Assembly: GCA_008632985.1 (NCBI GenBank)
Contig: QPGO01000019.1
Location: forward strand, 496,001-560,000
DNA from: Psammoneis japonica
Taxonomy: Eukaryota
DNA length: 64,000 bases
Direction of reading: 5' to 3'
Below, in pieces: positions 13,155 to 63,124 of the stretch. The position numbers and the translations under genes are program-made. The notes under the pieces were generated by a model. The model saw nothing but the letters and a program-made list of their open reading frames with translations. It had not been told where the DNA came from and made no database searches. Every line of letters starts with the position of its first letter. Positions within the stretch are counted from its first letter, which is position 1.

Positions 13155-13264
13155 TGTGAGAGGGTCCTCAAGCGGACCTTCTTGTGCTCTGCCAAAGACT
13201 CTAGAATGTCAAAGACATCATCCCAAAGTCACACTTTGAGCAAGGTGTGATGATGTCATCAACA
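13155..13264 (-). repeat. Candidate short 3' LTR of the minus-strand copia
   Basis: On the minus strand a short purine tract (GGAGG) is followed by TGTTG...CTCACA, directly after the truncated RT. No partner LTR was found in the window. Confidence 0.3.
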
Positions 13265-19850: not shown

Positions 19851-19959
19851 ATGCCAAAACAGCACGCGACAGAATGCGCGAAACCCCGTCAATCCCGCAG
19901 AAGAAATTTAAGTGTCGAACAATACGAAGCTGTCAACAATGATGCAAGCAGCGCAAACA

Positions 19960-20646
19960 ATGAAGTTGATCTTTTTGACGCTCGCCTTAATGGTCAGTGG
20001 AAGACGACTAACAGATGCCTTTGTGGTTTGTCCCAGTCATGTTGCGAGACAACAACAGCTCCAAGAGGACAAGCCCGGCGCGAGGACAACGGGTTCGCAT
20101 CTTGTGGTTCTGAATGCTTCCAACGACAAGAACATCTTGGCAAGGGCAGCTAACAAAATTGGCTCTTGGTTTGCGAAAAATAAAAAGGAAAATGATGATG
20201 ACACGGCCGTTGAACTACTCTCTCGCCATGACGATGGTGTGGCGCTTGCCAATGAAATGAAACAAGCACTCGAATCCTTTCCGTGGCCCTTGCGCGAAAC
20301 GACGGAATCCGTGACGCGTTCCGTCAGCCGTGGGCTCTTGCGAGAAGAACGAAAAGCCAAGCCCTTGTTGCACCAAGCCCAAAAGCTCATTCAGTCCGAC
20401 GCTGAAGTATGTGACGTTTTGGGTACGCCAATCAAGTTTGGTGATATCGTCAGTCAGAGTTCGGAAACGACCGTGTCTGTGATTAACAACAAGAGGACCA
20501 AAGTGATACGGATCGTTGATACCTTTCAAGTAGAAGGGTCCAAACAGAATGGAATCGCCATTTTGGCAGCTGACAAGTATGCCAAAGGACATCTTCAAAA
20601 GCTACGAGTCAATGTCAAGGGAATTCACTACGACATTGATGTTTGA
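19960..20646 (+). CDS. Probable plastid-targeted protein with a Coa1/Tim21-like C-terminal domain
   Basis: Signal peptide ending TDA|FVV, resembling the diatom ASAFAP cleavage motif. C-terminal LLHQAQKLIQSDAEVCDVLGTPIKFG...FQVEGSKQNG resembles the Coa1/Tim21 fold. Alternative ATGs at 19939 and 19942. Confidence 0.6.
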   Translation: MKLIFLTLALMVSGRRLTDAFVVCPSHVARQQQLQEDKPGARTTGSHLVVLNASNDKNILARAANKIGSWFAKNKKENDDDTAVELLSRHDDGVALANEMKQALESFPWPLRETTESVTRSVSRGLLREERKAKPLLHQAQKLIQSDAEVCDVLGTPIKFGDIVSQSSETTVSVINNKRTKVIRIVDTFQVEGSKQNGIAILAADKYAKGHLQKLRVNVKGIHYDIDV

Positions 20647-21212: not shown

Positions 21213-21884
21213 ATGCCCTCTTCGACAGGGAAACGTCGCCTGCTTTTCTTGCACGGCATGTGGGTCCCTCCCGAATGTTACAAGTCCAAAGAAGCAGTTG
21301 ACTTTTTGAATGTCTTGAACGATTGGGACGTTGAGTTTGTTGAAAGCCCTCGCCCCTGTCCAGACACTCCACCGAGTTGGATCGACGAAATGTTTCCTAA
21401 TCGATCCACCTCTCCTGAGTGGGTCAACTCACATTCGAATGAGGACGGCACCAAGACCTATCACGGGCTACCAGAGTCTCTTGCGTTCTTGCAAAAGTAT
21501 CTTTCAGAGCAACCACGATTCGATATAATTGCTGGACATTCCAACGGTGCCTTGATGGCATCCATCTTGTCACTCAAGATAGAGTCGGATGATAATTGGC
21601 TGGACCACAGTAAACACTGGAAAGGAGTTTTGTTGTTCAACGCGCCAGGATCCTATGAAAATGAAACGCACTTGTCGGAAGTTGTGCAAAAGCATGGAGC
21701 CATGAAAATGCCTTCGATTCACGTGTGGGGCGGCCCATCCGACATTACGTTTGAGGGAGAACAGCGCCTTCAGAAAGTGCATTATCCAAATAATGCTACA
21801 ATCATACAGCACAATGATGGACACTTGTTTCCCAAAGACAAAAAGTATTACAATGAGATCGCAGCGGCTCTCAACGAAATCTAG
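21213..21884 (+). CDS. FSH1/OVCA2-family serine hydrolase
   Basis: RLLFLHG, nucleophile motif GHSNG, PSIHVWG..D and GHLFP (Ser-Asp-His triad pattern). Intact single-exon ORF of 223 aa. Confidence 0.85.
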   Translation: MPSSTGKRRLLFLHGMWVPPECYKSKEAVDFLNVLNDWDVEFVESPRPCPDTPPSWIDEMFPNRSTSPEWVNSHSNEDGTKTYHGLPESLAFLQKYLSEQPRFDIIAGHSNGALMASILSLKIESDDNWLDHSKHWKGVLLFNAPGSYENETHLSEVVQKHGAMKMPSIHVWGGPSDITFEGEQRLQKVHYPNNATIIQHNDGHLFPKDKKYYNEIAAALNEI

Positions 21885-43900: not shown

Positions 43901-44510
43901 ACAAGATGACAAAGAACTGCTTTGGCCGACCATTGGCTGATGGTCTGCAGCAAGCCCAAGAGGCAAGGTCATTGAGACAGGGACATTCTGCAAGGACGAA
44001 ATGAGGAATTCCTTGAAGTCCTCCTTCACAATGCATCTGTGATTCAAAACAAAAACAGAAAATGCTTTCAAAGAGAACAGTGACCTGAATTTTTTTGACA
44101 CAATGAGAAAGGAAAAGAACAAACAACACAACAATGTGCCAAACAAAAATCACAGCCACTGCAAGAACACATCCAAATGAGAAAATGGCAACATCATCAT
44201 GTCCAGCACCCTTTGCAGCAGAACAATGTGACTTGTCAAAATTGCACACTGGGGGCAGGGACACACGGACAGGTGGTGACACAGTGGCTCTCGTGATTGC
44301 ATGCTGGTCACAATCATGTTGTGTCCCCAGCTTCACGATTTTTCTCTTATTTCATTGCTCATTGCTGCAACTGACATTTGGAGCTGGGTTCCAGCAGAGA
44401 ACCAGGAAGGCCATTTTGCATTGTGGAGTGCTGCTTTGCAGCCCTGAAGAAATGAAGACTGTTTGGGACACACTGAATGTGAGTCCATCCAAAATCAAGC
44501 ATGAGAATGA

Positions 44511-44755
44511 TGACAGGATTTGAACAAGATTTTAGTTCATCACACACAATTGTGTGTGCTCTCAGCTCCACTCGCATCACGCGATGTAGTTTGCTTTTGA
44601 GCCACATGGCTCACAAGAACAATGACAGCAGCACCAACATCATGACACCAGTCTTTTGGCTCCTGCAACGGTCTCTGCACAGAGACTCATCTGCTGTTTA
44701 GACAGCAGTGAGGAGATGTTGTTTTCTTCCACCCAGTCATCTTCAACTTCTGTCA
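44511..44755 (+). repeat. 5' LTR (245 bp)
   Basis: TG...CA termini; aligns end to end with 48592-48835. Confidence 0.93.
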
Positions 44756-47700
44756 GATTGACAGTCTGCTCATCTTCATCCATTGAGCGTTCATCATTGT
44801 CATCAAGAAAAATTTTGACAACGCACACCGTTGGTGGTGGAAGCACACACCTGCCTTCTCACTGCTGGATGTTGGATTGAATCTGCACATTTGGACTTGT
44901 CCAACACCTTGTGTCGTTGGACACATTTGTTCAACGGATGTTTGTTTGGTCAGGAATTCCCAAACTCTTGGACATCCAAGATTCCGGATTCCCTGCAGCA
45001 GATTCTACCCTGGTTGGCAGACAGACAAATCCATCCGCTCGCGTTCACGCGCACACGACACAAACCCTTGACTCTGGCCCTGCTTCGTGCATGCCAAGTC
45101 TACGCCTCTTATCTGCGCCGGATTGCTGGTCTTCTACAGTCCCACAAGGTCCACAAGGACAACTGTGAGAGGAAGCAGTTCGTGATTGCAGCCTGCATTG
45201 GGGCAAGGGTGCATTTCCCACGTTTTTTCATCCATCCACAGCGCCAAATTTGGCCGCCTGATCGGGTTGTCCAACCGACACAAAATGAGAACGGTTCGGA
45301 GGTCTTGTCCACCTCCAGCTGGCTTGTCAGCGGGGGTTTTTAACCCATTGCTCCGCTCTCAGGCAACCCAAGGCGTCACCAGCTGCGGGTTTGGACATGC
45401 CGGCACAACTCTGCGGACCGGATGGGAAGCTTGGCACTTGACTGCAAACGGGATGTCACAGCCTGGTGGCTTCTGACTCATGAGATGGTCTCCAAGACTT
45501 CAAATCAAGATTCAAGTCAAGTTTCAAGTCATTTCAAGTTCACCCTCGACTCCATCCAGCCCCAACACCCACCCAGTTGCAACATGGTTCTCACCAGGCA
45601 GCAACAAATCGATGGCCTTGAGCACATTCTAGGCACTGTTCTGGATCAAGCCGCAGACAGTCCATTGCACAATGCCCTCAACATTGATGGAACTGACTCG
45701 CACCAGGATCTCTTCACTTTTACTCCGACGCAACTGGATGCCCTGTTTCACAATGACGGCGCCAATCAGATGCCCTTGCCGCATGGTTACAAAGCACAGA
45801 CAGCTGCGCTGATTTGCCTGCACATGGTGAAAGCGCGCAGCGGTGCCAATGTTGGCAATGACCCTCACTTGTTCACACATGCTGAGTTCACTGACTGTCA
45901 TCTTAGCCCTGAGCACGCAGCATCCCTTTCCATGGGTGCAGCACCATCTGCTCCCACTCCTGGCTTGTTGCCACCCAAACCATGTGATCCCACGTGTGAC
46001 TTTAAACAAGGCATCAAACGTGACCCCCTCACCTTTGCAACTCTCAAGTCTGACAAACAGTGGCACACATGGCACACCTCCATCATCGCACAGGCCCGCT
46101 CCCAAGATGTCGACCACATGCTCGATCCAACGTACAAGCCCTCCACAGCTGAGGACAAGGCCCTGTTTGATGAACAACAGAAATGCATGTTCGTCACATT
46201 CAAATGCACCTTGCAGAACAACAAAGGCAAGGCACTTGTTTGTGAACATGTTGGCTCCTCTGATGCCCAAGCAGTGCATCGTGACCTGTCCAAGTGTGCC
46301 CTTGCATCTGCTCGCGCATCCCTGGAGTCCTTGACTCTTCTCACGCATCTCACCACTGCTCGCCTTGGTGATGGCACCTGGAAAGATCCACCCATGCCTT
46401 CATGCTTCACTGGCAGGACCAGCTTTGCAAGTGTGAAGCTCTTGTTCTGAGTGCAGACCACTTCTCTGCTGGCCAGAAATGCGCCATGGTTGAGAACGCC
46501 GTTCATCCTGTCAAAGAACTTCGTTTGGTGAAGAATCAAGCCGATCAGTTTCGCGCGCAGAATGGCAGAGGCCTCTTGTGCGAACAGTGCTGTGGGCTCC
46601 CACTTTCAGCAGTGGCACAGCACGACAGCACGTTCACCCCCAAGATGGCTCCACCCATCCCTCACCTTGTCATCTACAAACATGACCTGGCACCCAACAA
46701 CCATGATGATGATGCATTCTTCAACATTGACAGTGACGTTGACATCATTCAGGCTTGTGCTGCTCAAACCTGCAGCTCTTTTCTCATCAGGGAACAGTGG
46801 CACCACATTTTGCCAGACCACCAGTGCATTTGGGGCAGCCCACCGCAGTCCACCAAGGCCATCATCCTTGGATTGCGCAACCCCTGTTCCGGCAACTGCC
46901 ACGAGTTGGAAGGTGTCAGCCTCCATGAGGACCTCCATCTTGGAAGTGATGGCGACATTGATTTGTGTGTCAACACTCATGATCTTGCCTTGACCGCTGC
47001 ACCACCCACTGATGCACATGACAGGATGGACAACAACCTCATCCTGGCACATCTCATGAAGTGCAAGCCTCTGCTGCCCAGCAATCTGCAGCATCTTCTC
47101 TTGCCTGACAAACTGCTCCTACGCTTTCAATGGCGGGAACCCGTGCACTGCCACCTTGACTGTTCTGACTGGCCGTCTGAATCCTGCAAGTTGCATGGTC
47201 ACTTCGTTGGCATTGCCGAGCATGTCAGTCATCAGATGACATTCAAGATCCTCTCTGATGACACTCAGAATGTTCCCTGTTGCTCGAACATGCATTCCGC
47301 CCACAATCCGTCTGCCCCTGACCTGCGTCTTGACCCTCCTGACAAGGAATCAGCTGAACCTGTCATTAAATCCCGACATGACCCCAACTGATTCAATGGA
47401 TTCACCCAATGGGGAGGTGATCAGGATGCCCAAAATGCCGGTCGTTGCCCCCGAGGATGTCATTGGACGCACCTTCCTTGTGAAGCCACAAGAGGACAGA
47501 CAACACCACAGAGCTTGTGTCGTCAAAGCCGTTGAGGACCATGACTGGAAAATTGGAGACAATCCCAAACTGGTCAAGTTCATTTGCTCCATCAACAATG
47601 ATGAGTGCGAGGAAGTCCCAGCCTGCAACAACATCATGCACCACATCAATCAAGAAGACAAGGACACCACCCTCTGGAAGTTCCGATGCATCGCATCACA

Positions 47701-48591
47701 CAAAGGACCATTGTGACCCCACCATGATCCCTCTTGGAAAGGCTCAAGCTACAACGTCATGCTTGAATGGGAGAATGGGGAGATCACGTCCAAACCCCTT
47801 GCCATCATTGCCAAGGACAATCCCATCACCTGTGCCATCTGCGCACATGAGCACGGCCTCCTTGAAACTGAAAGATGGAGACATTTCCGCAAGACAGCTC
47901 TGCATCAGAAGAAGCCATTCTGCATGGCCAATTGAGCCAAGTTGCGCTCCTTTCATGCTGTGCCACAATGCAAGCATGAGCATGAAGTGCCCCGGGGCCA
48001 CAAGCATGCCTTGGCCCTTGATGAGCACAATGGCAAGCACAAGTGGGGAGATGCAACAGACCTTGAGATGACTCAGCTGGGTGAGTGCCATGTTCTCTAC
48101 AACTGTGGACACTGCAAGGACTCCAGTGCCCAAGCAGGACACAAGAAGATTGGGGTGCATCTCATCTGTGACATCAAACATGACGGACGGAACAAGATGC
48201 GACTTGTTGCTGATGGACACCTCACAGAGGCACCTGTTGACAGTCTGCGCATCACTTCACGTCACCTTGGCGTCCCCATTCATGAAACATGTCACATGTT
48301 TGGGGACAACAAGTTGGTTGTGGATGGTGCTGCCATCCCACACTCCAAGTTACACAAGCAACACACCACCCTCTCATTCCATCGTGCACGTGAGGCAATT
48401 GCCTCCGGTTTCCTTGAGTTTCATTTCATTGAAGGCTCCCGCAACCCAGCTGACATCCTCAGCAAGCATTGGGGTTGCTCTCAAGTCTGGAACCTCCTTC
48501 ATCCTAAAATGTTTTGGAGCTTCAATCCCAAGGCTTTCAACCAATCTGACTTTGAATCTGTCACTGTTGACCCCTCAAGCAAACTGGGGAG

Positions 48592-48835
48592 TGACAGGAT
48601 TTGAACAAGATTTTAGTTTGTCACACACAATTGTGTGCGCTCTTGGTTCTGCATGCGTCACCGATGCAGTTTGCTTTCAAGCCACATGGCTCACAAGAAT
48701 GACAACAGCAGTGCCAATGTCACGACACCAGTCTTTCGGCTCCTGTGATGGTCTCTGCATGGAGACTCATCTGCCATTTAGACAGCAGTGAGGAGTTGTT
48801 GTTTTCTTCCACCCAGTCATCTTCAATTTCTGTCA
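48592..48835 (+). repeat. 3' LTR (244 bp)
   Basis: Follows the purine tract, has TG...CA termini and is followed by the TSD. Confidence 0.93.
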
Positions 48836-50712
48836 AATGAGGCAGCCATGGGTCAGGGAAAGGGCTCAACTGGGTGGGCTGCTTGTTCCTGTGCTCCCAT
48901 TTTGGTTGTTGAGTGGAAGGGCTTTGACAGTTTGGCAGCTGCAGAGGGAAACCGTGACTGAAACCAGCAACTCGTCAACTTCAATTTGACCACCAGGTTT
49001 GAAATGGATCTAGATTCTTTTTTGAGCAAGGAGCGTGCAATGGCCACCATTGCTTTGTTCCTGAGCAAGCTCTCCATTCTATGCTGCAATCTTGTGGATG
49101 GCATCTGTTTTCCTCAGAGAAATTCTGAGCTGACCGCAAAGCCTGACATTGTGGCTGTGTGAGCAAGGATGACACAAGACTTCATGTTGGGACTTCCGAA
49201 GATGACTGTCTCCATCCCCACAACCTGGCAAGAGGGTGCAAACTCAATGAGAAAATGCTCAGTTGATTCAATCATTGTGTGGGTTCCCTCTTGAAACCAT
49301 GCCAGATTAGAAACTCTGGTTTTTGAAGCAAATGATGATGTGAATGGCTTGAACAGCAGCGCCAAGGCTCACAACATCATTGTCAATCACTGGGAGGTCT
49401 CACAAGACTTTGATGCAGAGAAACAGCAAAAGCAAGAGCCACTCTCTGCACAATGGCCCATTGCAAAGAGAAAGATCTTTCATCTTGTTTGTCAAATGCA
49501 TGGTCACATGGTTGCTGATGAGTGCTGATGCGGAGTTTTTCACACTGGTGACAGGAGGTGGATCTTTTGCAGGCGGATGAGCAATGGTGCACTCTTGTTG
49601 TCTCAAGCACTGTTTGGTGGGATGAAACCTCTCCATCTGTCCTCTAAGCTGCAAAGACTCTCACTGGATTTGATGACCATTGTTTGGGAGCCACTGTTGG
49701 CATTCATCCTTGTTCATTGGCATCCAAAGCACCTGCCAAAAAAGAGCTGAAATCATCACCCAAACCTCCCCCGATGCCCCCAAGCTGAAAGGACGACCAT
49801 GGTGGCAGGGAGCCAACAGGGAGAGGGAAAGACAACAAGACAAATGACACTCTAAATCTGGCAGCAACCCTGTTGTCCTGGGAGTGCGATGCATTTGACA
49901 AGACAGACAAAGTTCTGCTGCTGATGATGCCAAAGTGTCCTCATGTCTTGGCAAAAATGATGCAACAGAACCCGAGCTTGTGCCATGTTGCCCAGGAAAT
50001 GGCACACAAAGCAGAGTTTTACAAAGGGTTGCAGGGTTGGAAGGATGCAGAACAAGTCCTTCCTGGGTTTCACGGTCACAACACTCACTTGGTGGCTGTG
50101 GCCGTTGAGCTGCTTTGAGCTTGAGTCGGATGATTTTGATGACATTGCCATCAAAAACGTGTCAGTGGCACCAAAGCATCCAGCAGCACATGCAGTTGAG
50201 TTAGAGAAGTCTTTGCTTCTTCATTGACTGTGAGCCATCTTCATCCGCAAATCAAAGAATGGACAAGAAGCAGCAAGTGTTCGTGATTTGCGATCGCGAG
50301 TCACGTGCAGCAGGTCAGAGTGTTCTTGCTCGACACATCAAATGCGCGTGCATGCACCATGTTCAGTTGCCTGTGTGCTTTGTTTGCTCGTGAGTGTTGC
50401 ACATGATGCTGCGATCATGTAGAATGCACAGCGTTGCACATGAAATTGACACCTTTTAGAAGTGGTGGACATGGCATTGTGAATTGCACGTTCGGTCATG
50501 AATGTGGTCCAATGCACCAAAACTCCTCGAGCAGAAAAACGCCAAATTAAAAGCACCCATGCAATTTTGCCCACGTGTTCTCAGTTTTCACTTTGCTGTT
50601 GCAGCTCAGCCAGCAGAGGCCTGCAGTGCTTTGCTTCTCGTGCGGCCGCATTGACTGTCTGCCAGTGCCATGCTTTCTCAAACTTGCTTGTCTTGCAGGT
50701 TGTTGATGCACC

Positions 50713-52270
50713 ATGGGCCGCATCACTGTCTTTTCTCTTGACTCATGTCCACACTGCAAGTGAGCTGAGGGTGCTTGGAGTGCAAGAAAGATCCCCTTTG
50801 CGGAAATCAATCTCTTGAGTCATCCTCAAAAACGAAATGACATGCTGTCCCTTGCAGATCGCCTCTTGGTGCCGCAGGTTTTCTGGAATGAACAACACAT
50901 TAGAGGTGCAGATGAAACGATTGCTCAATTGACAGGATGGGACAAGAACACTGAAAAGAGTGCATTGCAACGACACAAAGATGAAATTGAATCCAAACCC
51001 AATCTGTTGGACCCGCATTTGGCCCTTCCCACAAGTCCGGCCGTCGTTGAAAAAGAACCTCCACCGTGTGACAATGAAAACAGCACGCTCTTTCAGATGG
51101 AACAATGGCTGCAGTTCTGGATGTCATGCAGAAACTCATCAAGGTGCTTCCACGCGACAACCTTTCCTGCAAGGTTCACATGTGCAAGGACTGTTTTTCA
51201 TTGGAGCCAAGGGAGTTTCCATGCTCATGGAGCATTTTGAACGGATTGCCACTCGTGATGAGGCTGTTGTGTTTGGATGACAACTGCAAGATGCCAAACT
51301 GCTCCATCATGTTTGTGAAGAACACAAATTCAAAGACAAAACATTGCTGTTGACTGCAGTGTTTTCATCAACCTGACGTTGTCAGTTCCCATCGTGTTTG
51401 GACCAAACGAGTCAATCCAAATGCCATGGCATTGCTCAAGCGATTGAAAAAGTTGTTGAGCAAGGTGGAGTCATCCATCACGGACAAAAAAGGTCCAGTG
51501 GACTGCATTGGTGCCCACGAGAGTGAACATTGCAATGTGTTTGAAGAAGCCGTCTGCAAACTGCAAGGAGTGGACATGGGAAAAATGAATGAGGAGGAGA
51601 GGCTCATCTTTGGAATGAACTTGTACAATCTTATGATCAAGTGCGTGCTCACAAAGGTTGGCATGCCATCATCTAACTTGACACAAGCTTCCTTCTTTTC
51701 AGGTGTCAAACTCAACATTGGTGGGGACGTTTTGTCATTTTATGACTTGGAGAATGGAGTGCTTCGGTCAAACTCGAAACCACCCTGCAGTTTCAGCACA
51801 CCATTTTCGTCGTCCAACCCCCGATGACATCTTGCCTTGAGTCCAGTGGATTGTCGGATTCATTTTGCTCTCAATTGCGGCACCAAGAGTCACCCGCCCG
51901 TCAAGGACTTTGCTGTTGAAAGCATGGAAGAGGAGTTGAGAATTGCTGCTCTTTCGTTTTGCGAAGAGGACAAGAATGTCGCTCTTGATGAAGCCAAGAA
52001 TGAAATCAAGCTCACCATGATTGTGAATTGGCGCCAAAGCGATTTTGCGGAATCCAAGGAAAAACTGCCAGAGAGCTCATTGTAATTCTTGAGGGGCGAA
52101 AAAGCAGAAACATTGGAATGCATGACTCAATCGGGCATTCCAATCAAGGTCAAATTTCACCAACACGATTGGAGCACAAATGCAAGTCATTTGACGTCTA
52201 CGAGAGCAGCAAACTCAAGGCAAACGAGTTCAGTCTGACACCACTGTTGAGTTTTGACAGTTGCAGAGAC
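50713..52270 (+). pseudogene. Glutaredoxin-DEP-DUF547 gene, decayed
   Basis: Glutaredoxin with CPHC: MGRITVFSLDSCPHCK*..IPFAEINL..VPQVFWNEQHIRGAD. DEP-like: CKDCF..TRDEAVVFG. DUF547: FGMNLYNLMI..NIGG..SFYDLENGVLR..DCRIHFALNCG. TGA stops at 50761 and 51825 plus frameshifts. The 3' end is approximate. Confidence 0.88.
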
Positions 52271-55059
52271 CCAATGGAATGAACAGCACAATGCATCAAT
52301 CACCCATGCACTGTTTTTTCATTCAGCATAGCTTTTGAAATTCCGGCATCCATTTCTTGTTTCTCATTGCATTTCATTGCGTTCATTTGCCACTTTGTTT
52401 CAAGTGTCACAGACCTCACAATGTGCTCCAGTTGGACATTGTCACTGCAAGCAGCCAGCATCAATGGAACAAGAGACGACATTTTGCTGCTGTGGGGCAG
52501 CATGAACATGGAAGCAGGGTCACTCACAAGGACTTGGTCAGATGTGGCACTCAGCTTTGTAACCTGAGACTGCCTCTTGTCAATTGTCCAGACTAAAAGC
52601 AGCAACACAAACTCACAGTGCAGAGTTTTGGGGCTGTGGGATCACCTGTGTTGGGCCGGCACCATGAGTGGATGCAAAGGCTTCAGCCTCTCATCAATTG
52701 CTCATGGTCACACAGCAATGGCACAAAAGCTCACAAGCATGTCCAGCAGTTGGAAGAAGAACAAACTTTGCCACAAACCAAGAGCGAACATCAGGTGGTG
52801 CTGCCCAGTGTGGCATCAGTGGACAGAGCGACATCAGCCTCTGCCAATCATCATGAAGCCGTGGAGCACAACATTTGTAGATGATTTTACCAAGGGAGGC
52901 ATTGCATCAGTTGTGGAATTGCTCAGTGGGGTCACCTGTGTGGCAGTCTTAAAGCAGAAGCAAAGGCTCACCAAATGCCCCCAAATGTTCCACCAACAAG
53001 TCCCTCCAAGATGCATTTGCTGTGCATGGTTGAGACAATTGGCAAGAAAACATCAAAGAGCCACACATTCATCTGTCAACCTGCTGTGACAGACAATGAT
53101 GGTGATGATGATGACAAAAAGTTTGCTGTTGCTGGCCTCCAGAAGTTGCTGCAACATCAACAATGTGGTGCTCAACATGTGGCCAAAGGCTGTGGCATGT
53201 TGTTCATGGAAGCAGAGGATGCAAACAAGTGCCAATTTTTCTGGCATTGATTGGTGAGACCCTGGCTGATGATGACCAGAGAATCGCTTGTCTGCCCTCC
53301 CAACAAAATTTGCAGAGCTGTTCACCCCTCATCCAATGCTGCCCATGGTGCACAACTGCAAAGCAAGTGCTCTCATGTGCTCACACATGATTGATGATTT
53401 GCCTTGCAACATTCTGGCTTTTCTTCACCTTGGCAGTCCACAAGGACAAACATGTGAAGTGAAGTGCAGGAAGATGCCCAGTGAGAAAAAATGTGCAAGG
53501 GACCGCCTCAAATTGGTCCTCAGGACCCTGCTCAATGATAAGGCCTGAGCTGTTGGAAGCAATGCTAAGACACTAGAGTGTGGCTGCCAGCTCTCTGCAA
53601 GTGCCAAATGGCAAAGAGCTCTCATGCCAAGAGCTCCACAATGTGCTCATCATGCAGGCCAGTGTGGCATGACTCTGCCTGATTTGCCTGAGTGTTGCAA
53701 TGGATGTGGGCATGCAGCAAACTCTCCTGGATTTTCCATTCAGTGTCAAAGCCACACTTCACAATGCCATCCACAACAACCTCCCCAACCAAGAGAGCCA
53801 AAATCTCTTCACATTGTTGGAAGTGGTGCCAGGCTCGCTCAAGTCACAAATGCAAAATGGAAAATTGCATGTGCAAAATCTCACCACTTGTTCATGTGAC
53901 CACTGCATTGGCCACACACAGAACCCTGTTTCTCTGTTTTTTGCTGGCAGCTGCTGCTGCACCCATGCACTCTTGCAAACACCATCTTTTTCGTCAGTGT
54001 TGCATTGTCAATCCAACAGCAGCACAGTGGCTGCAAGGGGTTGATGCTCATGATGTTTTTGCTGTGTCAGGCATCTGGCTGTCACATGTGACCAGACTCA
54101 ATCCTGGGCACTGGCGCTGGCAGAGGCTTGCTGCAAGACTTGCCACTCTGATGCAAGTGGGCCAGAAACTGAGGTGAAAAGAGGTCAGCATGTTTGCACT
54201 TTGCGCAGCTTCTTCCGTGCAAGAAGGCGCCTGCTCCAACTTCCGTTCTGTCTGTCAGCACCCAGTGCCCACTTGAGACTGTCTCAGTTTCAAAAGTTCT
54301 GTTTGAAGTGCTTGTGGCACAACCACATGTTTGAAAGTGCTCCAAGATGAAAAAAAAATGATGCATCAACACACACACAGAATGTCAGCAGCCAGCAAAG
54401 TGCACCCACTGCCTCTGAAAAAGTCCCATGTGCAGCCACAGCCCCCCACAGCTCACTCCTGAAGAATCAACAGGTGTCGCTCTTCTTGGGATGTGGCGCT
54501 CCTTCTTGACTCTAACAGGCTGGTGGGGTCTTCATTGCCCAGTGTGCCCACACTGCTCTTGTGGGACGAGTCTCTTTTGTTGTCAACCCACGCGTGCTTC
54601 TTGGCTGCTGAAAGCTGCAGTTTTCCAGACCCCCTTGAAAACCACAATCAGGAGGGAGGCTGTGGGGGTCACAGTGTCATCAAGTGTCAAACAGCTTGGG
54701 CAGAATTGTCTGTGTCCTCGAGACAGTGTGAGCTTGCCTGGCCCACAGCACATTTTGGGATGACGACCCCCACAAGACAGTTTGATGGAGGGATTGTTGC
54801 ATCCAAGTGTCAGAGTTGACATGCGAGCAGCTGCACTTGCATTTTTTACAACACATTTTGAAAGAAAGGTGAAAGGTGATGGAGATGATGGCATCGGCAT
54901 TCACACAACCTGGCCACCGTGTGGCTGCCAATGCAGAAGTGCGCAGGAGGAAAAGCCACACCAACCCTGCGAGGTTTCGATTTTTCGAAATGGACAGATG
55001 GTGCGTTTGCAGTGCAAGTAAATTCCGTGTTTTGGTTTCCTGTCAACTAACTCAGCGCT

Positions 55060-55302
55060 CTGGGTGTCGCCACTTAAAGCGAGAATCGCAGTGGCAGTCT
55101 GTCTGTACGACAGTTTCTACATGTGCTTTGCACTGTCGTCCGTCCCTACCGTACGGTACCACCTCCCGCCCGAGACAATTGGAGTCGGGTTGGTCGGCGC
55201 GAGCGGGAGGTGGCAGGGACGGACGAAAGTATAAAATATGCGTAGAAATCATCGTACAGACAGACCGCCACTGCGAATTTCCTTGCATGTGGCGAGACCC
55301 AG
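55060..55302. repeat. Foldback/MITE-like long imperfect inverted repeat (arms ~55060-55169 and 55203-55302)
   Basis: Left arm tcgcagtggcagtctgtctgtacga...tcgtccgtccct..ccacctcccgc is the reverse complement of gcgggaggtgg.agggacggacga...tcgtacagacagaccgccactgcga. Confidence 0.85.
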
Positions 55303-55514
55303 CTCAGCAGCGGCGTTTATCGGTGTCCTACCTCGCTCTTTAGCGTCATAAAACTACTCTCTAGCTAGAGTAGTAGGGCCCTACCGTAGCGTGCTACTAC
55401 CTACTCTAGGACTACTGTACTTTCTTTGTGGAAACAAACCTGCAGTCTGCCATAGAAAACTGCGTTATCATTTCGTTGCCAATTTAATTCAATTCAATCA
55501 TGCGACGACTAGGT

Positions 55515-57181
55515 ATGAAGAAATTTCCAATGGCGGCACTTCTCGTGCTTGTCACAATCTTGCGAGAGTCTGTTAGTGGCTGGACTGTTGGACACACTCC
55601 ACTAAGCATGGCAGTCACAACCAGTAGACAAGCAGCTTCCACCTCGCCAGCACTGAGTCGCTCCGGTCACGACCAAAAAGCATGGGCGAGAAGGTACACA
55701 ACGTGTCCCAAAGAGATACCACTAACAGTCATTGATTGTCCGGATCTGCCCAAAGATTTTCCTTAAGGGACTTACTAGCGGAATGGCCACGGACGATTTG
55801 AGTCTGACGATGGGGTTTGTGCTCATCACATGTTTGATGGAGATGGCCTCGTTTCAGCCATGACGTTTGATCCTCGTCAGAAGAAGCTCTTGTTTCGGAA
55901 CAGATTTGTGCGCACCGAAGGATATCGATCTGATTCAGAAACCGGGAAAATGAGTCAGCCGGGTATCTTTGGAACACGAGGTTCTGGTGGGTTCTTCTCA
56001 AACCTCTTTAGAACCGATTTCAAGAACGTGGCCAATACCCATGTGCTGTACGGCGGAGAAAAGTTGTACGCCCTTTGGGAAGGTGGATGGCCATATCTTC
56101 TCGATCCACTGACATTGGAAAACGACGTTGAAAAGGAACCAAAGGGACACGACCTAAACGGCCTCTTGAAGGATCAAGACAAGTTTGCGGCACACTACCG
56201 ATACGATTCCCATTCTGGTCACATAGTCAATTTCGGTTCGAGCCTCGATCCTGTGAAGGGAGAAAGCAAGATCAACCTTTTTGAATTTGACAAGGATATG
56301 AAACCAATCCGAACGGATGAAGTATCCTTTGTATTTGATGGTGCCGCTGTTGTTCATGATTACGTTCTTACTGAGAACTGGCATATCTTTTGCATGCCTC
56401 CCGCCGGCATTGACAACCAAAAGGCTCTCATGGCCTTGTTGGGGCAAGCGGCTTTTGCGGAGGTTGTGGACTTTGATTCTCAAGCTACCGAACCGACTGT
56501 CTTTCTGGTGCCACGCATTACACGGCTCGAAGAGGGAACGGCTGCAGATATGCGTGCAAGACATGACAACCGAATAAAAGTAATCAAGGTTCCCTATCAT
56601 TTCAATTTTCACTTTGCCAATGCCTTTGAGGACGAAGACGGCAACGTTGTGTTTGATTCTGTAATGACGGAAGAAGCAGAGGTAAGGCCGGTTCCAGGTG
56701 ATTTTCATGATTATTTTGTATCTCATCTGGAAACTCACTGGGTCGCGCATTCTTGCGGTAGCTTGGAGCTGGTTTTTCCAAGGACATTCCGTTATGGGAC
56801 CAGATTGACTGGGACGACCTCGTTCCCAACAAGTACGTACGAATTTCGGTGTCTCCCGAGCTGGACAGCATCACGCCAGGAACTCGCTTTGACGTGATTT
56901 CCGCACGCTCCAATGAATTTCCGTCCATTCCAATGGCACTGTCAGGCAAGACGCATCGATGCACGTGCACTGTCGGTGCCCATCAGCCGCATGCAACCAT
57001 GCCCAATGGTCGTGGTGGTGCCCCGGGCGGTGCCACACTCAAACTTGACACGGCACAACCAGAAAAGTGCGAGTCATTTTCTTTTGCGCCTTGCGAATTC
57101 CCCGGCGAAGTTGTGTTTTGCCCGAAACAGGGAGCAGACGTGACCAATCCAAACTTTTTGCGTGCACCACATTCAAAGTAG
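55515..57181 (+). pseudogene. Carotenoid cleavage oxygenase (RPE65/ACO family) pseudogene with a plastid-type targeting signal
   Basis: DLPKDFP*GTY*RNGHG, HMFDGDG, FRNRFVRT, KNVANT, LWEGG, FAAHY, VHDY, FHFANAFE, EFP and GEVVFCP. Stops at 55764-55766 and 55776-55778; intron 56682-56761. Similarity ends near 57150, before the expected last blades and fourth His. Confidence 0.88.
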
Positions 57182-57255
57182 CCGAATGGCAGCATCGTCC
57201 TGCCCTGCACCGCACACAAGAGTCCCCTTTACCATCCCGATACCAAAGACACCGG

Positions 57256-58638
57256 CTAATGCACAGACGAAAGCAGAAAGGTCTGAATGAAGTGATGGCC
57301 TCCAAAACCTCCCGAAATCGCAATGAAGAGTTCTCCACATTCAGGATTGCCCAGAACACACGCCACTTGATGACCTTCTCTTGGCACGCCCGTCTCTGGG
57401 GTGCGCAGTTTTTTGCCACTCTCCAGGTCACATTCATCAAGCGTGATAAATTCGCGATCGTCAATGTGGGCAAACACACTGTTTGGTGTGGACAAAAACA
57501 CCCTGGTGGGACACATAAAGCCATCCTCTAAAGAGGCCTTGTCGGTGGCACCATTGAATGAGATCTTCTTGCAAAGAGCAGAGCATTCCTCGCAGAGGAT
57601 GCAGTGGCTGGCTCGTCCGCTCCTGTCATGGTTGAGGCGCATTTCGCCATCTTCAAAGCACGGAGAGAAGTCGGTCTGTGACAATGTGAAACGGCAAAAG
57701 GTGTAGATGCCCAACCCAATGCCGGGAAAAGGACCTTCTTGTTCAAGATTGCGAATCATCAAGAGGTGGCTTCCAGTCACAATAAGATGTACAGTCGTGT
57801 AACGCGGTAGTCTCGCATTCGCATCATCAGGCTCGGGCATGCGAATCGTCTTGCTGCAGCGTTTTTCACCCGTTGCAATTGCAAGGGACTCAATCGTGTA
57901 GGAGACTTCTCGGTTGCCTTGCTCTGTTCGCCATAGTAGATACATTGTTGAGTCACCAGCAGCAACGGCTACATCTTGAATTGCGTCGTCGTCGGAGGCA
58001 CTCAATGTTTTGGTGTACAGGAACTGCAAGTCTGTTTGTCCCTCCAATTTCCATACATGGATAAATTCTGTGTCAGCCATATGGGGACACCGGCGCAGCA
58101 CCAAATAGCCATTGGAATAGATGAGATCGTCCGTAATCCAACAGATGGGGTCCATCAGCGGGCCAGGGATGACTGGGACGAAGCCCAGTTCTGCTTCCCA
58201 GACAATTGTCATCGTTTGTGTGTCAAGAATCCGAATCATATTGTCCGGTTCAGAACATGCCGTCACGACATTCCCATTTGGAAGCACGGCACTCGGTCCG
58301 TTGAGTCTAGTCGCGCGCTGTTTCAAAGGAATTCTGTCCATGCACAGAGACAAGAGGCGAGGGTGAATCATCCTCTCATCATTGGGGCGTTCTAAGCCAC
58401 TTGAAACCTTTGTCACCAATCGAGTCCTAAAGTCGTCATCCACAGCATAATTTGCAATCACTGACGACAACAGAGACTGTGCCGGTTCTTCAGCAGCCGC
58501 CAGAAACTCCGGCGAAACCAAGGCGCTTTCGGCAACGTCCATGAAGGATGCGATTTTTCGAAGACACCCATTATCCAGCTCAGGAAGAAAACCCGGCTGC
58601 ATGCTCTCCTCAGCAGTGTTCGTCTCACGATCGTTCAT
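57256..58638 (-). CDS. F-box-like protein with a beta-rich (propeller-like) C-terminus
   Basis: Open ~460-aa frame. LPELDNGCLRKIASFM..ALVSPEF resembles an F-box, and IRILD and IHVWKL resemble WD-like strands. The 3' part is Cys/His-enriched and may be decaying. Confidence 0.55.
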   Translation of the reverse strand: MNDRETNTAEESMQPGFLPELDNGCLRKIASFMDVAESALVSPEFLAAAEEPAQSLLSSVIANYAVDDDFRTRLVTKVSSGLERPNDERMIHPRLLSLCMDRIPLKQRATRLNGPSAVLPNGNVVTACSEPDNMIRILDTQTMTIVWEAELGFVPVIPGPLMDPICWITDDLIYSNGYLVLRRCPHMADTEFIHVWKLEGQTDLQFLYTKTLSASDDDAIQDVAVAAGDSTMYLLWRTEQGNREVSYTIESLAIATGEKRCSKTIRMPEPDDANARLPRYTTVHLIVTGSHLLMIRNLEQEGPFPGIGLGIYTFCRFTLSQTDFSPCFEDGEMRLNHDRSGRASHCILCEECSALCKKISFNGATDKASLEDGFMCPTRVFLSTPNSVFAHIDDREFITLDECDLESGKKLRTPETGVPREGHQVACVLGNPECGELFIAISGGFGGHHFIQTFLLSSVH

Positions 58639-58849
58639 TCTCTCGCAGCAAAGACAACAGCAACGGCACAGTACGGAGCTTTTCTTGTTTGTTGTTGTTT
58701 TTGGCAGGCATGCACTATCTGCCCAAGTTCGAGGTACAGGTATGATATGATAAGTACAAGTACACGGCACCGTAGGTCGCCGTACAAGCTCTGCGTAGAA
58801 CCAAGGTGCGAACTCTGTCCTCGCGAAGTCGAAGCATCATGCGAGCTCA

Positions 58850-60070
58850 GGACCCGTTGAAGCTCGTGCGTGCGTTGAACGTGCTGCAGATTGTTACAAC
58901 ATGAGTTCGTTGCCGCCTCTCGTTTTCCTCCCTCATTCTTCCGAAGAATGAAGGAAAACAGAGACGACGTTGTAGACAGTCAATTCGCTATTGTCGTCGT
59001 TGCGAAGGACACCTTCGCCGTTTTCTTTCGATCGCAGGAAGACTTGTCTGAGAAGCACATCAGAACAGTCTCCAAGCAACGTCGTGTCCACGATGATGGT
59101 TTGTTTGTCTCAAACTCGTGGACTCTTGGCTCTCGGCCATCTGCAGCATGGGGCTTGCAGATGAGTCTCAGGGTTGGGAACTTCCAATGTTTCAGCTCAT
59201 GCTCCCACCAGTGGTGTGTTTCTTGTTCTTTCATCAAAGTTGAGCCGACTGGGTGCCGCATTTGCACCACACCACAACAGCGACCGCAGAACAGCCCAAA
59301 TCTCAACTTGATGCATCTCTGTTTGTTGAAGCCAACAATGGGCCAACAAGAGGGAAAAAGTGACCCAACTCTCCAGCAATGAGTTTGAGGAAGCTTCTGG
59401 AAAACAAAGCAAGTTTGGGACGATGTCCTCTTGGGAATGTTGGCACGGGTTCCTGGCACTGAGAGAAAGGAGAGCAAGTTTTACATTCGCACATGGCATG
59501 ACTTGTTGCACACTCTTGGTCCCATCCCTCTAAGATTGCACAAATCTTTGCCGCTTGTGTGTTGCACAAGCAAAATTGAGCATGAACTTTCTGCTCAAAT
59601 GATGTGCCGCCCGATGCAAATTGTGTCTTTCTGCCCAGATCTGCTCTTCCGTGGTTCTTTGAGCATTTCTCCACCCTTGGTGCTCCTTGTGGTGGCATCA
59701 CCCTCAACCTTTAAAAAACTGGGATTGTCATCTCCATCACCAGCACCAGCAGCCCCATCCCCACTCGTCTTCCTCCATCTCAGGCTGGCCCTTTTCCACT
59801 GAATTGATTGAGAAAAAGCACACAGTGCGCCACCACCAAGATGATGGTGGTGGCTGGAGTCATGCGGCAGCAGTGACGGACTCCCCCTTCTGCACCCCTT
59901 TCTTCTTGCCAGCAAAGAACCATCTCATCAAGCACGCCTCCATGCTGTTTTTGTTGTGCCAGCACACGCATCAGATGGATGAATTGTTTGTGATTTTGGA
60001 AAAAAGGACTTTTTACTCTGACGAAAAAAGTTCAAATTTCAAAAAATGACACCAATTTGCGTTGTGACGT
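58850..60070. other. TpA-depleted degenerate patch with unidentified decayed coding sequence
   Basis: Few TA dinucleotides, CpG only partly lost, and overlapping Cys/His-rich ORFs. Confidence 0.6.
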
Positions 60071-60210
60071 CATGAATGAACTCACAAATGAACCAAAAAG
60101 ACGAAAAAGAAAGCGCGCCAAACCATCACACTGATAAGACACTGCAACATCAACACGTACGGTACGCGACACCAGCACACAGCACAGCACAAATCCATCG
60201 CATCCACACC

Positions 60211-61223
60211 ATTGGAAAGAAAAGCCGCCGCACCAAAGTCGGCAGAAGAATCAAGTCGGTGACAAGCAGCACTGCTGCTCAAGAAAAGGAAAAAGACAAT
60301 AATGCGAGCCGCATGCAGCAACTGCTTGCAAAATTGCGAGGCGACTTTGAAGACGTAGATTCTGCGACTCGTGTCTTGAACGAGCTCGGTCAAGTCTTCA
60401 ACAACACCCACAATATGGATCGTGCAATTCGGAACTTTGTCGAGGCTCGTGGCATTGACAGTATGCTTGTCTTTATGCGCAAGAATCCATATGGTCTATC
60501 AAGCTTGTGCGCATGCTGTGCCACTCTTTCTGCAGTAGCTGCATGCCCCGCCGTACCAAACACTATAACTCACGCCGCGATGGTACGGAGCGGCGGAATC
60601 CCGATTATCATTCAAGTCATTCGCACCGTGATTCAAGTTGGAATTCCGACCGATATCGAACGCATAAATATGAATTGTATCAGTCGTGCCATGGAGCTTT
60701 TGGCGGCATTGGCGGGCATCAACATGTCTTCTGTACAAAGCTCTGGTGGCAAGTTGCGCTCGGCCGTGCGCTGGCGGATATGACGAGTCGTGGCGGAATC
60801 CCGTGCCTTTTGGATTGTCTCCTGCAGTATCCGGACGATGCCGATATTCAAGCACCGGGATGTGCCATTACGGCGGTGCTTGCCAATCCAGATATTGGTG
60901 GCAATCCATCTGCGGTCCTTGCCGCTGGAGGAGACTGCGTCATGAAGACAAGTCTTGCACTGTATGAGGGAAATAACAACGACATTGAAACGTGCGCATC
61001 CGATGCGCTCTTTTACATGATGAAGGTGGTTCCGAAATGCAAGTGTTGTGGAAAGGAATCCGTGGATGGCATGATGGTATGCAACCGGTGTGATACAACT
61101 TGGTATTGCAATAACGATTGCCTCAAGAGGGATTGGCAGAATCACAAAAAGGCGTGCAACAAGGCGAGGTGGAAACCTCTTCACCAAGCAAAGACGCCTT
61201 GCTGGGAAAGGTCCACCTTGTAG
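60211..61223 (+). pseudogene. ARM-like repeat + MYND zinc-finger gene, frameshifted paralog
   Basis: Paralogous to 62036-63124. The homologous start codon reads ATT (in-frame ATGs exist upstream). It is 118 nt shorter between GG(60750) and GGIP(60792), causing a frameshift. The MYND motif CKCC..CNRC..YCNNDC..DW.NHKKAC is retained. Confidence 0.8.
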
Positions 61224-62035
61224 AGAGATCTGTTGTTTTTTGTGGCATTTCAAGACAATGGTGTAGTGCTTTCTTGTGGACAAATCGTTTCCACTGCTTG
61301 GAGCCGTGAAGCGTGACGGTAGAGTGCAAATTATTTGAATGACGACGTTCACGATCGTCTCTCGTGCACTCCTGTTTCACAAAAGCCCGAGGCCTCTAGT
61401 CAATATCAAATCGTTTCGCTTGTTTGGAGCAGTGAAACGTACAGTAGTATATGTGATTGCTCTCTAGCATATGGTAGTAGCTTTTAGCTTATGTATCCTT
61501 TTTAGATTCAACTAGACATTTCTAGAGCATTCGAATTAATCGCAGAGGTAGCGCTGATAGATGCCAGGACGCCTCTCCCCTTTTAACTTCAACAAGAATG
61601 TCAAATAAAAGATGCGTCTTGTCCATTCACACGTCGTTTCGCAAATGATATCAACAATGGATGGTCGCACTGGTAGTACTGGTAAGACTATTAAAACATG
61701 AAATTGAGCTTGACGCTCGTCTACAGTTGCAATTCAGATTAGTAGATACGGGACAAGTAGAACGGAAAACCCTCTACTCTAGGTGCTGAATTACGAATTA
61801 CTGTACGAAACTGCAGGTAGAGTGACACTGACATCAGGTACTAGAGTGTAAAGTAGAGGTCGCGATTCATATTGAGAGCCATTGTGGAGAAGCTGTGCTC
61901 CAAGTACAGCAAACAATAATGGCAGTCTCATTGCTTTCTGTCAATTTTACGAAGGAAAACACCAAAAAAAACGCCAAAACGATGGCCCACATGGACCGGA
62001 CACAACACAGACCACAGACACACAACACAGCCACC

Positions 62036-63124
62036 ATGGGAAAGAAAAGCCGTCGTAACCGAGTCAAAGGCAAGATCAAGTCGGTGGCAAATGTGCCTTT
62101 AGCTCGAGAAGAAGACGACGAGCAGATCGTTGGCTGCATGCAGGCTGTGGTCGCGAAACTGCGAAGCGACTTTGTGAAGAACGCTTCGAAAATCATGTTG
62201 GAGCTCCTTGGTGAATTCAAAAAGGACAGGACTCGTGCAGCTTCGGCATTTGTCGAGGCTGGAGGCATTGAAAGTATTCTTGTCTTTATGCGAAAACATC
62301 AGAATGACCCATCTGGTATGTGTTTCTGCTGTGCTGCTCTTTCTGTGGTTGCCGATAGCTTGCCGAGCAATGCCTGCGCCGTCGCGATTGCTCAGAGCGG
62401 CGGAATTCCAACTATTGTTCAAACTATCCACCATGTAATCAAAGCTGGCATTCCAGCAGGTTGGAGAAACACCAGCACCTACCTGAAATGTATGAGTTGC
62501 AGTATGGATCTTTTGGGCGAGTTGGCGAATATCAATGTTACGGACGTACAATGCGCTGGAGGCGTACCGGCCATAGTCGAAGTCCTGCAGTGTCCTTTTA
62601 CAGATGATGAAGAAACGACGAAAAGGCACTTGTATTGCAATGCCATCTGTTCGCTAATCTCGATCCTTTTTGCGACGAGTGTTGTTGACTCTCCGCTTGT
62701 GTTTGCGGAGATAACCAATTGTGGTGGAATCCCCTCCCTACTTTCTTGCATGAATCAGCATCCCGACGATGCGGATATTCAAGCATCCGGATGCGCCATC
62801 ACGGCGATGCTTGCCAGTCAAGAAGTCGGTGGTTATCCATCTGCAGTCCTTGCTGCAGGAGGTGACTGTGTCATGGAGCAAGCTCTAGTATCTCACCCAG
62901 GGAAACGCGGTATTCAGATTAGTGTAACCAATGCGATCCGCTACATGAACGCGGTTGTTCCTAAATGCAAATGTTGCGGAAAGGAATCAGCGGATATGAT
63001 GGTGTGCAATCGTTGTGACATTGTATGGTATTGCAATGGCGATTGCAACACAAAGGATTGGCCGAATCACAAGGAGGCGTGCAACAAGGCTCGTTGGAAA
63101 CCCCGCAACAACGCTCGTTCTTGA
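62036..63124 (+). CDS. ARM-like repeat protein with a C-terminal MYND zinc finger
   Basis: MGKKSRR start. Repeated GGI..I/L motifs (AGGIESIL, SGGIPTIV, AGGVPAIV, CGGIPSLL). C-terminal CKCCGK..CNRCDIVWYCNGDC..DWPNHKEAC. Confidence 0.85.
   Translation: MGKKSRRNRVKGKIKSVANVPLAREEDDEQIVGCMQAVVAKLRSDFVKNASKIMLELLGEFKKDRTRAASAFVEAGGIESILVFMRKHQNDPSGMCFCCAALSVVADSLPSNACAVAIAQSGGIPTIVQTIHHVIKAGIPAGWRNTSTYLKCMSCSMDLLGELANINVTDVQCAGGVPAIVEVLQCPFTDDEETTKRHLYCNAICSLISILFATSVVDSPLVFAEITNCGGIPSLLSCMNQHPDDADIQASGCAITAMLASQEVGGYPSAVLAAGGDCVMEQALVSHPGKRGIQISVTNAIRYMNAVVPKCKCCGKESADMMVCNRCDIVWYCNGDCNTKDWPNHKEACNKARWKPRNNARS

Follow-up and report, generated by a model that had tools for sequence, protein, structure and literature searches.

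A TpA-depleted island at the tail-to-tail junction of two duplicated diatom genes, probably the product of a TA-targeted mutational process

The window analysed here is a 64,000-bp stretch of the genome of the diatom Psammoneis japonica (GenBank assembly GCA_008632985.1, contig QPGO01000019.1, positions 496,001 to 560,000; all coordinates below are those of the window). In it, a copy of a carotenoid cleavage oxygenase gene and an uncharacterised gene of a diatom family converge tail to tail, their stop codons being separated by 74 bp. An island of ~0.86 kb, centred on this junction of two duplicated genes, contains very few TpA dinucleotides (hereafter TA), and its core contains none, while CpG (CG) is still frequent (features in Table 1). 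As argued below, a TA-targeted mutational process probably made this island.

Judged from its sequence, the oxygenase copy is by descent a member of the RPE65 family (PF03055), with its best protein matches in records from the diatoms Asterionellopsis, Odontella, Coscinodiscus, Cylindrotheca and Ditylum, and it is now a pseudogene, because it carries two in-frame stops and has lost its C-terminus. The Pfam profile is matched at positions 31-290 (E = 2.5e-56) and 323-415 (E = 3.1e-07) of 469, and positions 416-469 are missing; tblastn with four orthologs found no trace in the whole window of the last ~75 ortholog residues, which include the C-terminal LHG motif. The motif DFPxGTYYRNGH is translated from the window as DFP*GTY*RNGH (asterisks denote stops), and the column of the TAG stop (55776-55778) is Tyr in 16 of 18 orthologs. 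Carotenoid cleavage oxygenases bind iron through four His, presumably those of such motifs, of which HMFDGDG, HDY and HFNFH are present in exon 1. Exon 1 is 63-65% identical to the four diatom orthologs tested, and exon 2 44-49%; among 16 orthologs the mean pairwise identity of the two regions is similar (57.0% for the exon 1 part and 52.3% for the exon 2 part). The initial annotation had described the upstream exon as normal in Tyr and TA content. Its Tyr codons are indeed kept, but it also holds the two in-frame stops, which had gone unremarked, and its TA observed/expected ratio (o/e) is 0.44.

A recount of the core agreed with the zero TA and about 26 CG reported initially, giving 0 and 26. 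The TA-free gap, bounded by TA at 56838 and TA at 57179, measures 341 bp, and the full 861 bp (56840-57700) hold 7 TA and 51 CG. In the core, o/e is 0.00 for TA, 1.03 for CG and 1.52 for CA+TG (36 CA and 28 TG), and in the TA-poor extension 0.23, 0.71 and 1.40, respectively, as compared with 0.44, 0.91 and 1.19 in exon 1. With a TA o/e of 0.15 over the whole island versus 0.40-0.44 in its flanks, the depletion is sharply regional.

Table 1. Features of the locus and of its surroundings in the window.
Feature	Position	Strand	Description
Oxygenase (RPE65 family) pseudogene, exon 1	55500..56681	+	Pfam PF03055, E = 2.5e-56 for 55779-56681
Intron, 80 bp	56682..56761	+	GT..AG, phase 0; seen in the sequence, and a contig of run X2 passes directly from 56679 to 56760, leaving out 80 bases with the same ends
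Exon 2, ending early at TAG	56762..57181	+	RPE65 profile positions 323-415 of 469 only
Two in-frame stops	TAA 55764-55766, TAG 55776-55778	+	Inside the conserved DFPxGTYYRNGH motif
Two Cys TGC codons	56960-56962, 56966-56968	+	Invariant Tyr positions of HRYxY
TA-free core	56840..57178	no strand	339 bp, GC 0.549, 0 TpA, 26 CpG; covers most of oxygenase exon 2
TA-poor extension	57179..57700	no strand	522 bp, 7 TpA; 74-bp inter-stop spacer and 3' end of the convergent gene
Six derived CA/TG sites	56990..57093	+	Paralog and window-like allele contig have TA at 56990, 57036, 57093 and CG at 56992, 57046, 57076
Homology breakpoint with paralogous copies	57154..57161	no strand	Oxygenase paralog contigs leave after 57154; neighbour-paralog contigs align from 57161
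Convergent gene, uncharacterised diatom family	57256..58638	-	460 codons and stop, open reading frame intact; 6 homologs
Erased blocks	1-1500, 13001-19800, 42001-54950, 59001-60000	no strand	22,250 bp; o/e TA 0.07, CG 0.27, CA 1.72, TG 1.79
Inverted repeat, looking like a miniature inverted-repeat transposable element (MITE)	55060-55302	no strand	91-nt arms, 77% complementary, 61 nt apart; adjoins an erased block edge

In length, the 341-bp gap ranks 21st in the whole window, the 20 longer gaps all lying inside blocks that lack both TA and CG (the erased blocks, described below). Outside these blocks it is the longest of 1589 TA-free gaps, and the 6th and 8th longest also fall within the island (57179-57700). 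The next gaps in normal DNA, of 310 bp (2602-2912; Pro/Ser/Thr/Ala repeat coding) and 228 bp (38948-39176; Ser/Gly/Asp/Glu-rich coding), are of low complexity, unlike the focal tract, which codes for a conserved globular region. Within the 41,750 bp of normal DNA of the window, over which this was assessed, no other TA-free tract reaches 340 bp. We calculated the chance of zero TA exactly, with a transfer matrix under first-order Markov nulls. For the 339 bp, P = 4.0e-5 with a null trained on the flanks of the two genes, and 5.6e-5 with a null combining the composition of the segment with the normal dinucleotide bias (9.4 TA expected); for the 861-bp island, 26.1 TA are expected and 7 seen (Poisson P = 1e-5). 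A codon-aware null, built from the segment's own Tyr-free protein and local codon usage and scaled by four control open reading frames (ORFs; mean observed/expected 0.74), predicts 8.0 TA in the core (0 seen, P = 3e-4) and 10.7 in the coding part 57259-57699 (3 seen, P = 6e-3). Since the deficit persists in both segments, TA was also lost at synonymous and codon-boundary positions. Self-BLAST found no second copy of 56601-57900 inside the window, and the island holds no substantial inverted repeat, only a 27-nt palindrome (56935-56980) and a 14-nt pair.

The direction of change was read from conserved Tyr columns, defined as those with Tyr in at least half of the orthologs. Inside the island, Tyr is kept at 0 of 6 such columns, four being Cys (TGY) and two Phe (both mixed Tyr/Phe columns), versus 15 of 18 outside, where Tyr is replaced by the TAG stop, by one Phe and, at 57766, by one His (Fisher P = 6.2e-4); exon 1 alone keeps 8 of 10. 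The readings HRCTCTVG and APCEF, pointed out in the initial annotation, are correct, and both Tyr columns of HRYxY (56960 and 56966) are Tyr in 18 of 18 orthologs. As the orthologs carry Tyr there and do not share the Cys of the window, the mutational reading of TA loss stands. Over the focal part of the oxygenase, the window has Tyr 0, Cys 5 and His 3, whereas the 18 orthologs have Tyr 2-7, Cys 0-3 and His 2-4. Both strands were struck: on the plus strand, TAC became TGC at 56960, 56966 and 57093 and TA became CA at 56990 and 57036, and in the minus-strand gene TAY became TGY at 57430 and 57592.

The convergent gene has 6 homologs (E 8e-53 to 2e-38), none with a precomputed Pfam domain. It had been labelled F-box-like, a label that finds no support, as neither an F-box nor any other Pfam profile matches its 526-residue frame at E <= 0.1 (0 families); an 81-residue antisense frame likewise has no Pfam match. 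The description of its 3' end as TA-poor and rich in Cys and His holds, with 3 TA where 10.7 are expected: the last 147 residues contain Tyr 0, Cys 10 and His 7 in the window and Tyr 2-4, Cys 3-8 and His 2-6 in the 6 homologs. Two of its Cys codons, TGC at 57592-57594 and TGT at 57430-57432, are Tyr in 4 of 6 homologs.

We then aligned to the window the contigs from three public sequencing runs of one sample (X1, X2 and X3). Contigs of X1 are spread over genic and intergenic DNA, those of X2 mainly over genic bins, and no contig of X3 could be placed on the window. X2 is treated as RNA-like because a contig skips exactly the 80-bp intron, its record reading 'DNA?'. The differences given below are the best-supported ones, and 429 further difference rows lie outside this set. 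A spliced X2 contig (record 10) represents a paralog of ~90% identity, with 30 differences over 431 bp of exon 1 and 38 over 395 bp of exon 2. This paralog was not found in the protein database, where the best match is a 77% relative ending at the exon 1 boundary. It carries TA at 56990, 57036, 57093 and 57508, and where the window reads CAT, ACA and TGC (56990-56992, 57035-57037 and 57092-57094) it reads TAC, ATA and TAC. The run contigs have Tyr codons where the window has PCEF and HQPH, and the initial guess of a PYEF-type ancestor is borne out by these paralog codons. Past 57154, the paralog stays in frame as QEDKGYLVTY (QEDKG(Y/H)LVTY over all paralog contigs), the oxygenase sequence expected from orthologs; the 3' end of the window copy was thus lost at 57154/57155. 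Beyond this point, the Tyr of EDKGY is present in the X2 contig but is His in the X1 loose-end consensus (agreement 0.93 between 2 contigs); other oxygenase copies or alleles thus also differ by TA versus CA.

A further X2 contig (record 11; 346 nt, 56979-57323) tracks the window across the junction and differs from it at six sites only (Table 1), each with the non-window letter in both X2 contigs (depth 45.3 + 4.8 = 50.1). Because all six letters of record 11 are shared with the paralog, they are ancestral and the window state is derived. The six changes consist of three TA to CA/TG and three CG to TG/CA, with no other kind and no private change in the other allele. Given 7 TA in the 345 bp, at least 3 of 6 changes would hit TA with a binomial probability of 1.2e-3; per site, 3/7 TA and 3/~29 CG have changed in the span of record 11. 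A further CG to CA change is present at 57339, and over 56840-57700 the 10 differences among the best-supported ones comprise four with TA in the reads and CA/TG in the window (56990, 57036, 57093 and 57508), four with CG in the reads and TG/CA in the window, one that is the reverse and one of another kind. Depths in X1 are ~40 for the window letters, ~31 for the alternative letters (second contig) and ~75 for the paralog, with 52.8 in the single-copy flank, which fits a heterozygous locus plus a paralog, contig depths being a crude measure. Summed contig depth reaches ~150-340 over 55.4-58.6 kb versus 53-70 in the flanks. By this measure the segment is present in several copies, which answers the question of its duplication raised in the initial annotation, with no second copy within the window.

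These comparisons change part of what had first been proposed. That TA loss is mutational and TA-targeted is supported by the 0 of 6 Tyr kept in the island and by paralog and allele contigs reading TA at the lost sites. That it occurred without CG loss is not, as CG to TG/CA accounts for half of the six derived changes and CG to CA for a further change at 57339, and as CG o/e is down to 0.71 in 57179-57700. The TA process had been suggested to act first or faster, which is best put as faster, or reaching further, in view of the per-site counts (3/7 TA vs 3/~29 CG) and of the 15 versus 1 of 638 windows described below. As to the claim that the two processes are separable, TA loss is far more complete, but both lesions are active here and full independence is unsupported. 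The lesion was also suggested to be young and in genic DNA: a near-identical allele does retain three of the lost TA, in keeping with a recent origin, but a pseudogene between erased blocks is not ordinary genic DNA.

The erased blocks differ from the remaining 41,750 bp (TA o/e 0.56, CG o/e 0.96) in dinucleotides, with base composition almost unchanged. Their TA-free runs reach 1497 bp (42851-44348) and their edges at 42001 and 54950 are sharp; in the block 59001-60000, 200-bp windows have TA o/e 0-0.13 and CG o/e 0.31-0.77. The island sits in the normal compartment, between the blocks 42001-54950 and 59001-60000. X1 contigs reproduce two block stretches at single-copy depth, with 6 differences over 1051 bp and 8 over 1595 bp. 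When the whole window is scanned in 638 windows of 300 bp, 15 combine low TA with normal CG, several lying at block margins, and 1 shows the reverse. TA survival inside the blocks depends on context: the density left, relative to normal DNA, is 0-3.5% for purine-TA-pyrimidine, 5-17% for mixed contexts and 21-44% for pyrimidine-TA-purine, so that TA followed by a pyrimidine, on either strand, is the preferred target. Two direct repeats (44511-44758 and 48592-48838; 248 bp, 86% identical, ~4.1 kb apart) differ mostly by CA versus TG at the same dinucleotide, the pattern expected from independent hits to an ancestral CG or TA on one strand or the other. Between them lies a gag-like ORF (45344-46447) with 1677 homologs, one of which (P0146, 1881 aa) has a Copia-type RVT_2 domain, and 4 of its 7 conserved Tyr are now His or Cys; 44511-48838 looks like a degenerate long terminal repeat retrotransposon, a Copia-type remnant. 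By contrast with the blocks, the inverted repeat 55060-55302 has TA o/e 0.8-1.6 and CG ~1.1 at an X1 depth of ~470-500 versus 53 in the flank (~nine-fold), with contigs joining opposite strands. It looks like a high-copy MITE-like element, and with its TA o/e still close to 1 it shows that erasure is not triggered by copy number alone.

Several further observations concern the blocks. At the margins 19600-20400, 58800-59200 and 59900-60200, TA loss extends 100-400 bp beyond CG loss, with TA o/e 0.11-0.17 and CG 0.77-1.37. Mixed-context TA survivors are strand-biased (33 vs 15), and CG loss is heaviest in the context TCGA and lightest in GCGC. A host-type gene remnant lies in an erased block at 50764-51824 (+), with matches to Glutaredoxin (E = 6e-6) and DUF547 (E = 4e-12) and a weak DEP match between them; with TA o/e 0-0.11 and CG o/e 0.46-0.86, it is a second genic case in which TA is gone and CG partly kept. 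These two were the only families above the curated Pfam cut-off among 67 ORFs of at least 110 residues from the erased blocks, and a smaller set of 15 ORFs gave nothing above it. A repeated piece is found both in an erased block (19080-19335) and in normal DNA (21310-21554) at 74% identity, the differences being often CG or TA in the normal copy and CA or TG in the erased one. Elsewhere in the window, the adjacent stretches 60207-61177 and 62032-63102, both in normal DNA, are collinear at 67-74% identity and look like a tandem gene duplication, and a run of 7 N occupies 97-103.

Could the island have arisen without a process aimed at TA? A pseudogene and a relaxed neighbour might have drifted, in a TA-poor genome, until one 341-bp stretch was empty by chance: the oxygenase is broken by two stops and a lost C-terminus, TA is scarce in general (o/e 0.56 in normal DNA, 0.40-0.44 in the two genes), and the gap is only 21st longest in the window. 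We consider neutral decay unlikely nonetheless, given P = 4-6e-5 under composition-matched nulls, the first rank among 1589 gaps outside erased blocks, the 8/10 conserved Tyr kept by the TA-rich exon 1 of the same pseudogene, and six derived changes versus a near-identical allele that all fall on TA or CG, together with a CA+TG o/e of 1.52. Nor does selection or composition account well for the tract, whether TA was avoided for codon usage, because of UA-dependent RNA decay in overlapping 3' ends, or to maintain open frames. Long ORFs do run in several frames across it, and low-complexity coding sequence makes up the other long TA-free gaps of normal DNA; here, in a truncated, stop-bearing gene, Tyr that is invariant in 18/18 orthologs has become Cys in a globular conserved part, and the expressed paralog still reads TA at the corresponding sites, which makes this explanation very unlikely.

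The erasure may instead have occurred elsewhere, if gene conversion brought the tract in from a paralog that had been erased more heavily, or if the intact paralog patched the allele that now bears TA. The several copies suggested by summed contig depth (~150-340 vs 53-70) would allow it, and copies do differ in TA state (His in the DNA contig versus Tyr in the expressed copy at EDKGY). We find it quite unlikely, as the six differences of the window-like allele over 345 bp all fall on TA or CG, where a patch from a copy 10% divergent would bring ~11 mixed differences in 104 bp; it would moreover shift the place of mutation and still require a TA-targeted process. Editing of RNA offers another route, in which double-stranded RNA from the convergent transcripts would be edited by an ADAR-like enzyme, at A following U on both strands, and copied back into the locus as cDNA. 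The island is centred on the tail-to-tail junction with its 74-bp spacer, the X2 contig of record 11 spans that junction, changes lie on both strands, and ADAR has a 5'-U preference as cited in Mettrop et al. (10.64898/2026.01.13.699255). Such a route would leave unexplained the CG to TG/CA changes and the same signature over 22 kb of erased blocks, and no footprint of reverse transcription was seen, the intron 80 bp upstream being kept; it is highly unlikely. An assembly or base-calling artefact at modified TA sites, the real genome having TA there, is extremely improbable and was rejected on k-mer contig support. It would explain why the window differs from every aligned contig at some sites, e.g. 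57339 and 57508, but X1 k-mer contigs carry the window letters at 56990-57093 at a depth of ~40-57 (total minus other-letter) vs 52.8 in the flank, and X1 reproduces the erased flanks (6 differences over 1051 bp and 8 over 1595 bp).

A number of points weigh against a TA-targeted process as the origin of the island. X2 is called RNA-like from a single spliced joint, and its record reads 'DNA?'; the difference spectrum of the island comes from the best-supported rows, with 429 others outside that set; no contig has the window's letter at 57339, 57508, 57542 and 57808; and X1 may be the sample behind the window's assembly. The six-site allele could be a short gene-conversion patch from the paralog, although this is disfavoured by the ~11 paralog differences expected in 104 bp. 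The frequency of TA-free tracts in normal exons was covered over the ~41.7 kb of normal DNA in the window. The non-focal parts of both genes are TA-poor too, with a codon-aware observed/expected of 0.56-0.67 vs 0.85-0.88 in two other ORFs, and part of the TA deficit may thus be gene-specific. Lastly, 7 TA are still present in 57179-57700, and CG changes accompany the TA changes, unlike the TA-only spectrum of Bigelowiella natans discussed next.

The closest known case is that of B. natans, in which integrated giant-virus and virophage DNA undergoes de novo TA to TpG/CpA hypermutation at ~1000x background, according to a preprint (Mettrop et al., 10.64898/2026.01.13.699255), which also proposes ADAT2/TadA-like adenine deamination, cites reports that ADAT2/TadA enzymes edit DNA, and holds data indicating that TA hypermutation without CG change is possible. 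The two cases share their products (TpG and CpA on the two strands), a regional confinement, a long-term footprint of low TA with high CpA+TpG, and the absence of a tie to copy number, the viral region there being single-copy and the erased flanks here being at single-copy depth. Both products are found on both strands of our island, and the depletion is sharply regional. The island is not foreign DNA, however, being homologous throughout to diatom host genes, and an excess of G:C to A:T changes is present, 3/6 derived changes being CG to TG/CA and CG o/e being 0.27 in the blocks. The lineages also differ (chlorarachniophyte versus diatom). The footprint is far stronger in the diatom, TA o/e being 0.45 in the viral region there, as compared with 0.07 for the blocks and 0 for the island core here; the targets are integrated viruses there, and a host gene pair and a Copia-type element here; rates were measured de novo there, whereas the process here is deduced from comparisons. 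CG to TpG/CpA decay accompanies TA loss here, and the term 'CpG' occurs 0 times in the preprint text, which gives no flanking bases either. Our literature searches found no report of TA loss or hypermutation in a diatom and nothing closer than this preprint. TA-targeted hypermutation has so far been reported only in one unrelated alga, where it was first described in 2026.

Fungal repeat-induced point mutation (RIP) turns CpA into TpA and thereby raises TA. The diatom locus resembles it in that RIP is regional, heritable, made of dinucleotide-specific transitions, destructive to repeats and able to spill over into genes that are duplicated or lie nearby; the A to G and T to C changes here remove TA instead. 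We rejected RIP because its direction is opposite, TA being depleted here, and the multi-copy repeat 55060-55302 is unaffected. Decay of CG through 5-methylcytosine has a counterpart in the CG to TG/CA changes of the island (56992, 57046, 57076 and 57339) and, strongly, in the blocks (CG o/e 0.27), but it cannot remove TA, and CG o/e is 1.03 in the island core. The TadA substrate is the U33-A34-C35 anticodon loop, which the T-A-pyrimidine preference seen here resembles. Adenosine deaminases (ADAR, ADAT2/TadA) would, as described in the preprint, produce A to G changes with a 5' T or U, and TA-pyrimidine is lost most completely in the blocks; ADAR, however, edits RNA, and such changes are not passed on to offspring.

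Coming back to a TA-targeted process, the comparisons point to a regional conversion of 5'-TpA-3' into TpG or CpA on both DNA strands, its targets being Tyr codons, other TA-bearing codons and codon boundaries. CG in the same tract is also becoming TpG or CpA, at a per-site rate several-fold lower, and with this slower loss TA is exhausted while CG density still looks normal. Quite likely the same regime stripped the neighbouring transposable-element-remnant blocks of both dinucleotides, the island being an early stage on a decaying multi-copy gene pair. As to chemistry, and more tentatively, an ADAT2/TadA-like deaminase may act on adenine in DNA where it stands between T and a pyrimidine, turning it into inosine, which is read as G, a suggestion drawn from the Bigelowiella precedent and from the context bias of the erased blocks. 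More speculatively, the process could be aimed at silenced or antisense-transcribed chromatin. With the 3' end of the oxygenase lost and 74 bp between the stops, the two transcripts should overlap, and for guidance by such an overlap we considered the 74-bp spacer, the centring of the island on the junction and the one X2 contig spanning it. Put together as a diatom TA-directed DNA editing of the ADAT2/TadA-like kind, active in a T-A-pyrimidine context, directed at silenced or antisense-transcribed chromatin and not at foreign sequence as such, striking host duplicates too, preceding 5-methylcytosine CG decay and shared across the stramenopile, alveolate and rhizarian (SAR) lineages (diatoms and Bigelowiella), the scheme is a doubtful conjecture.

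If this scheme were true, TA editing and not cytosine methylation would be the first irreversible lesion of silencing, and the editing of host gene duplicates would start where convergent transcripts overlap. For genome annotation, the change of Tyr to Cys or His and the missing TAA and TAG stops create long spurious ORFs and disguise pseudogenes and transposable elements, as in the 22 kb of erased DNA here, with two Pfam matches above the curated cut-off. The locus is small and seemingly heterozygous, with an erased and a less erased allele, and is therefore suited to measuring the rate, strand, chromatin state and small-RNA guidance of the process. Overall, the diatom case would extend TA hypermutation to stramenopiles, with a much deeper footprint, would show the process reaching host genes and coexisting with CG decay, and would supply a target rule, TA followed by a pyrimidine being preferred.

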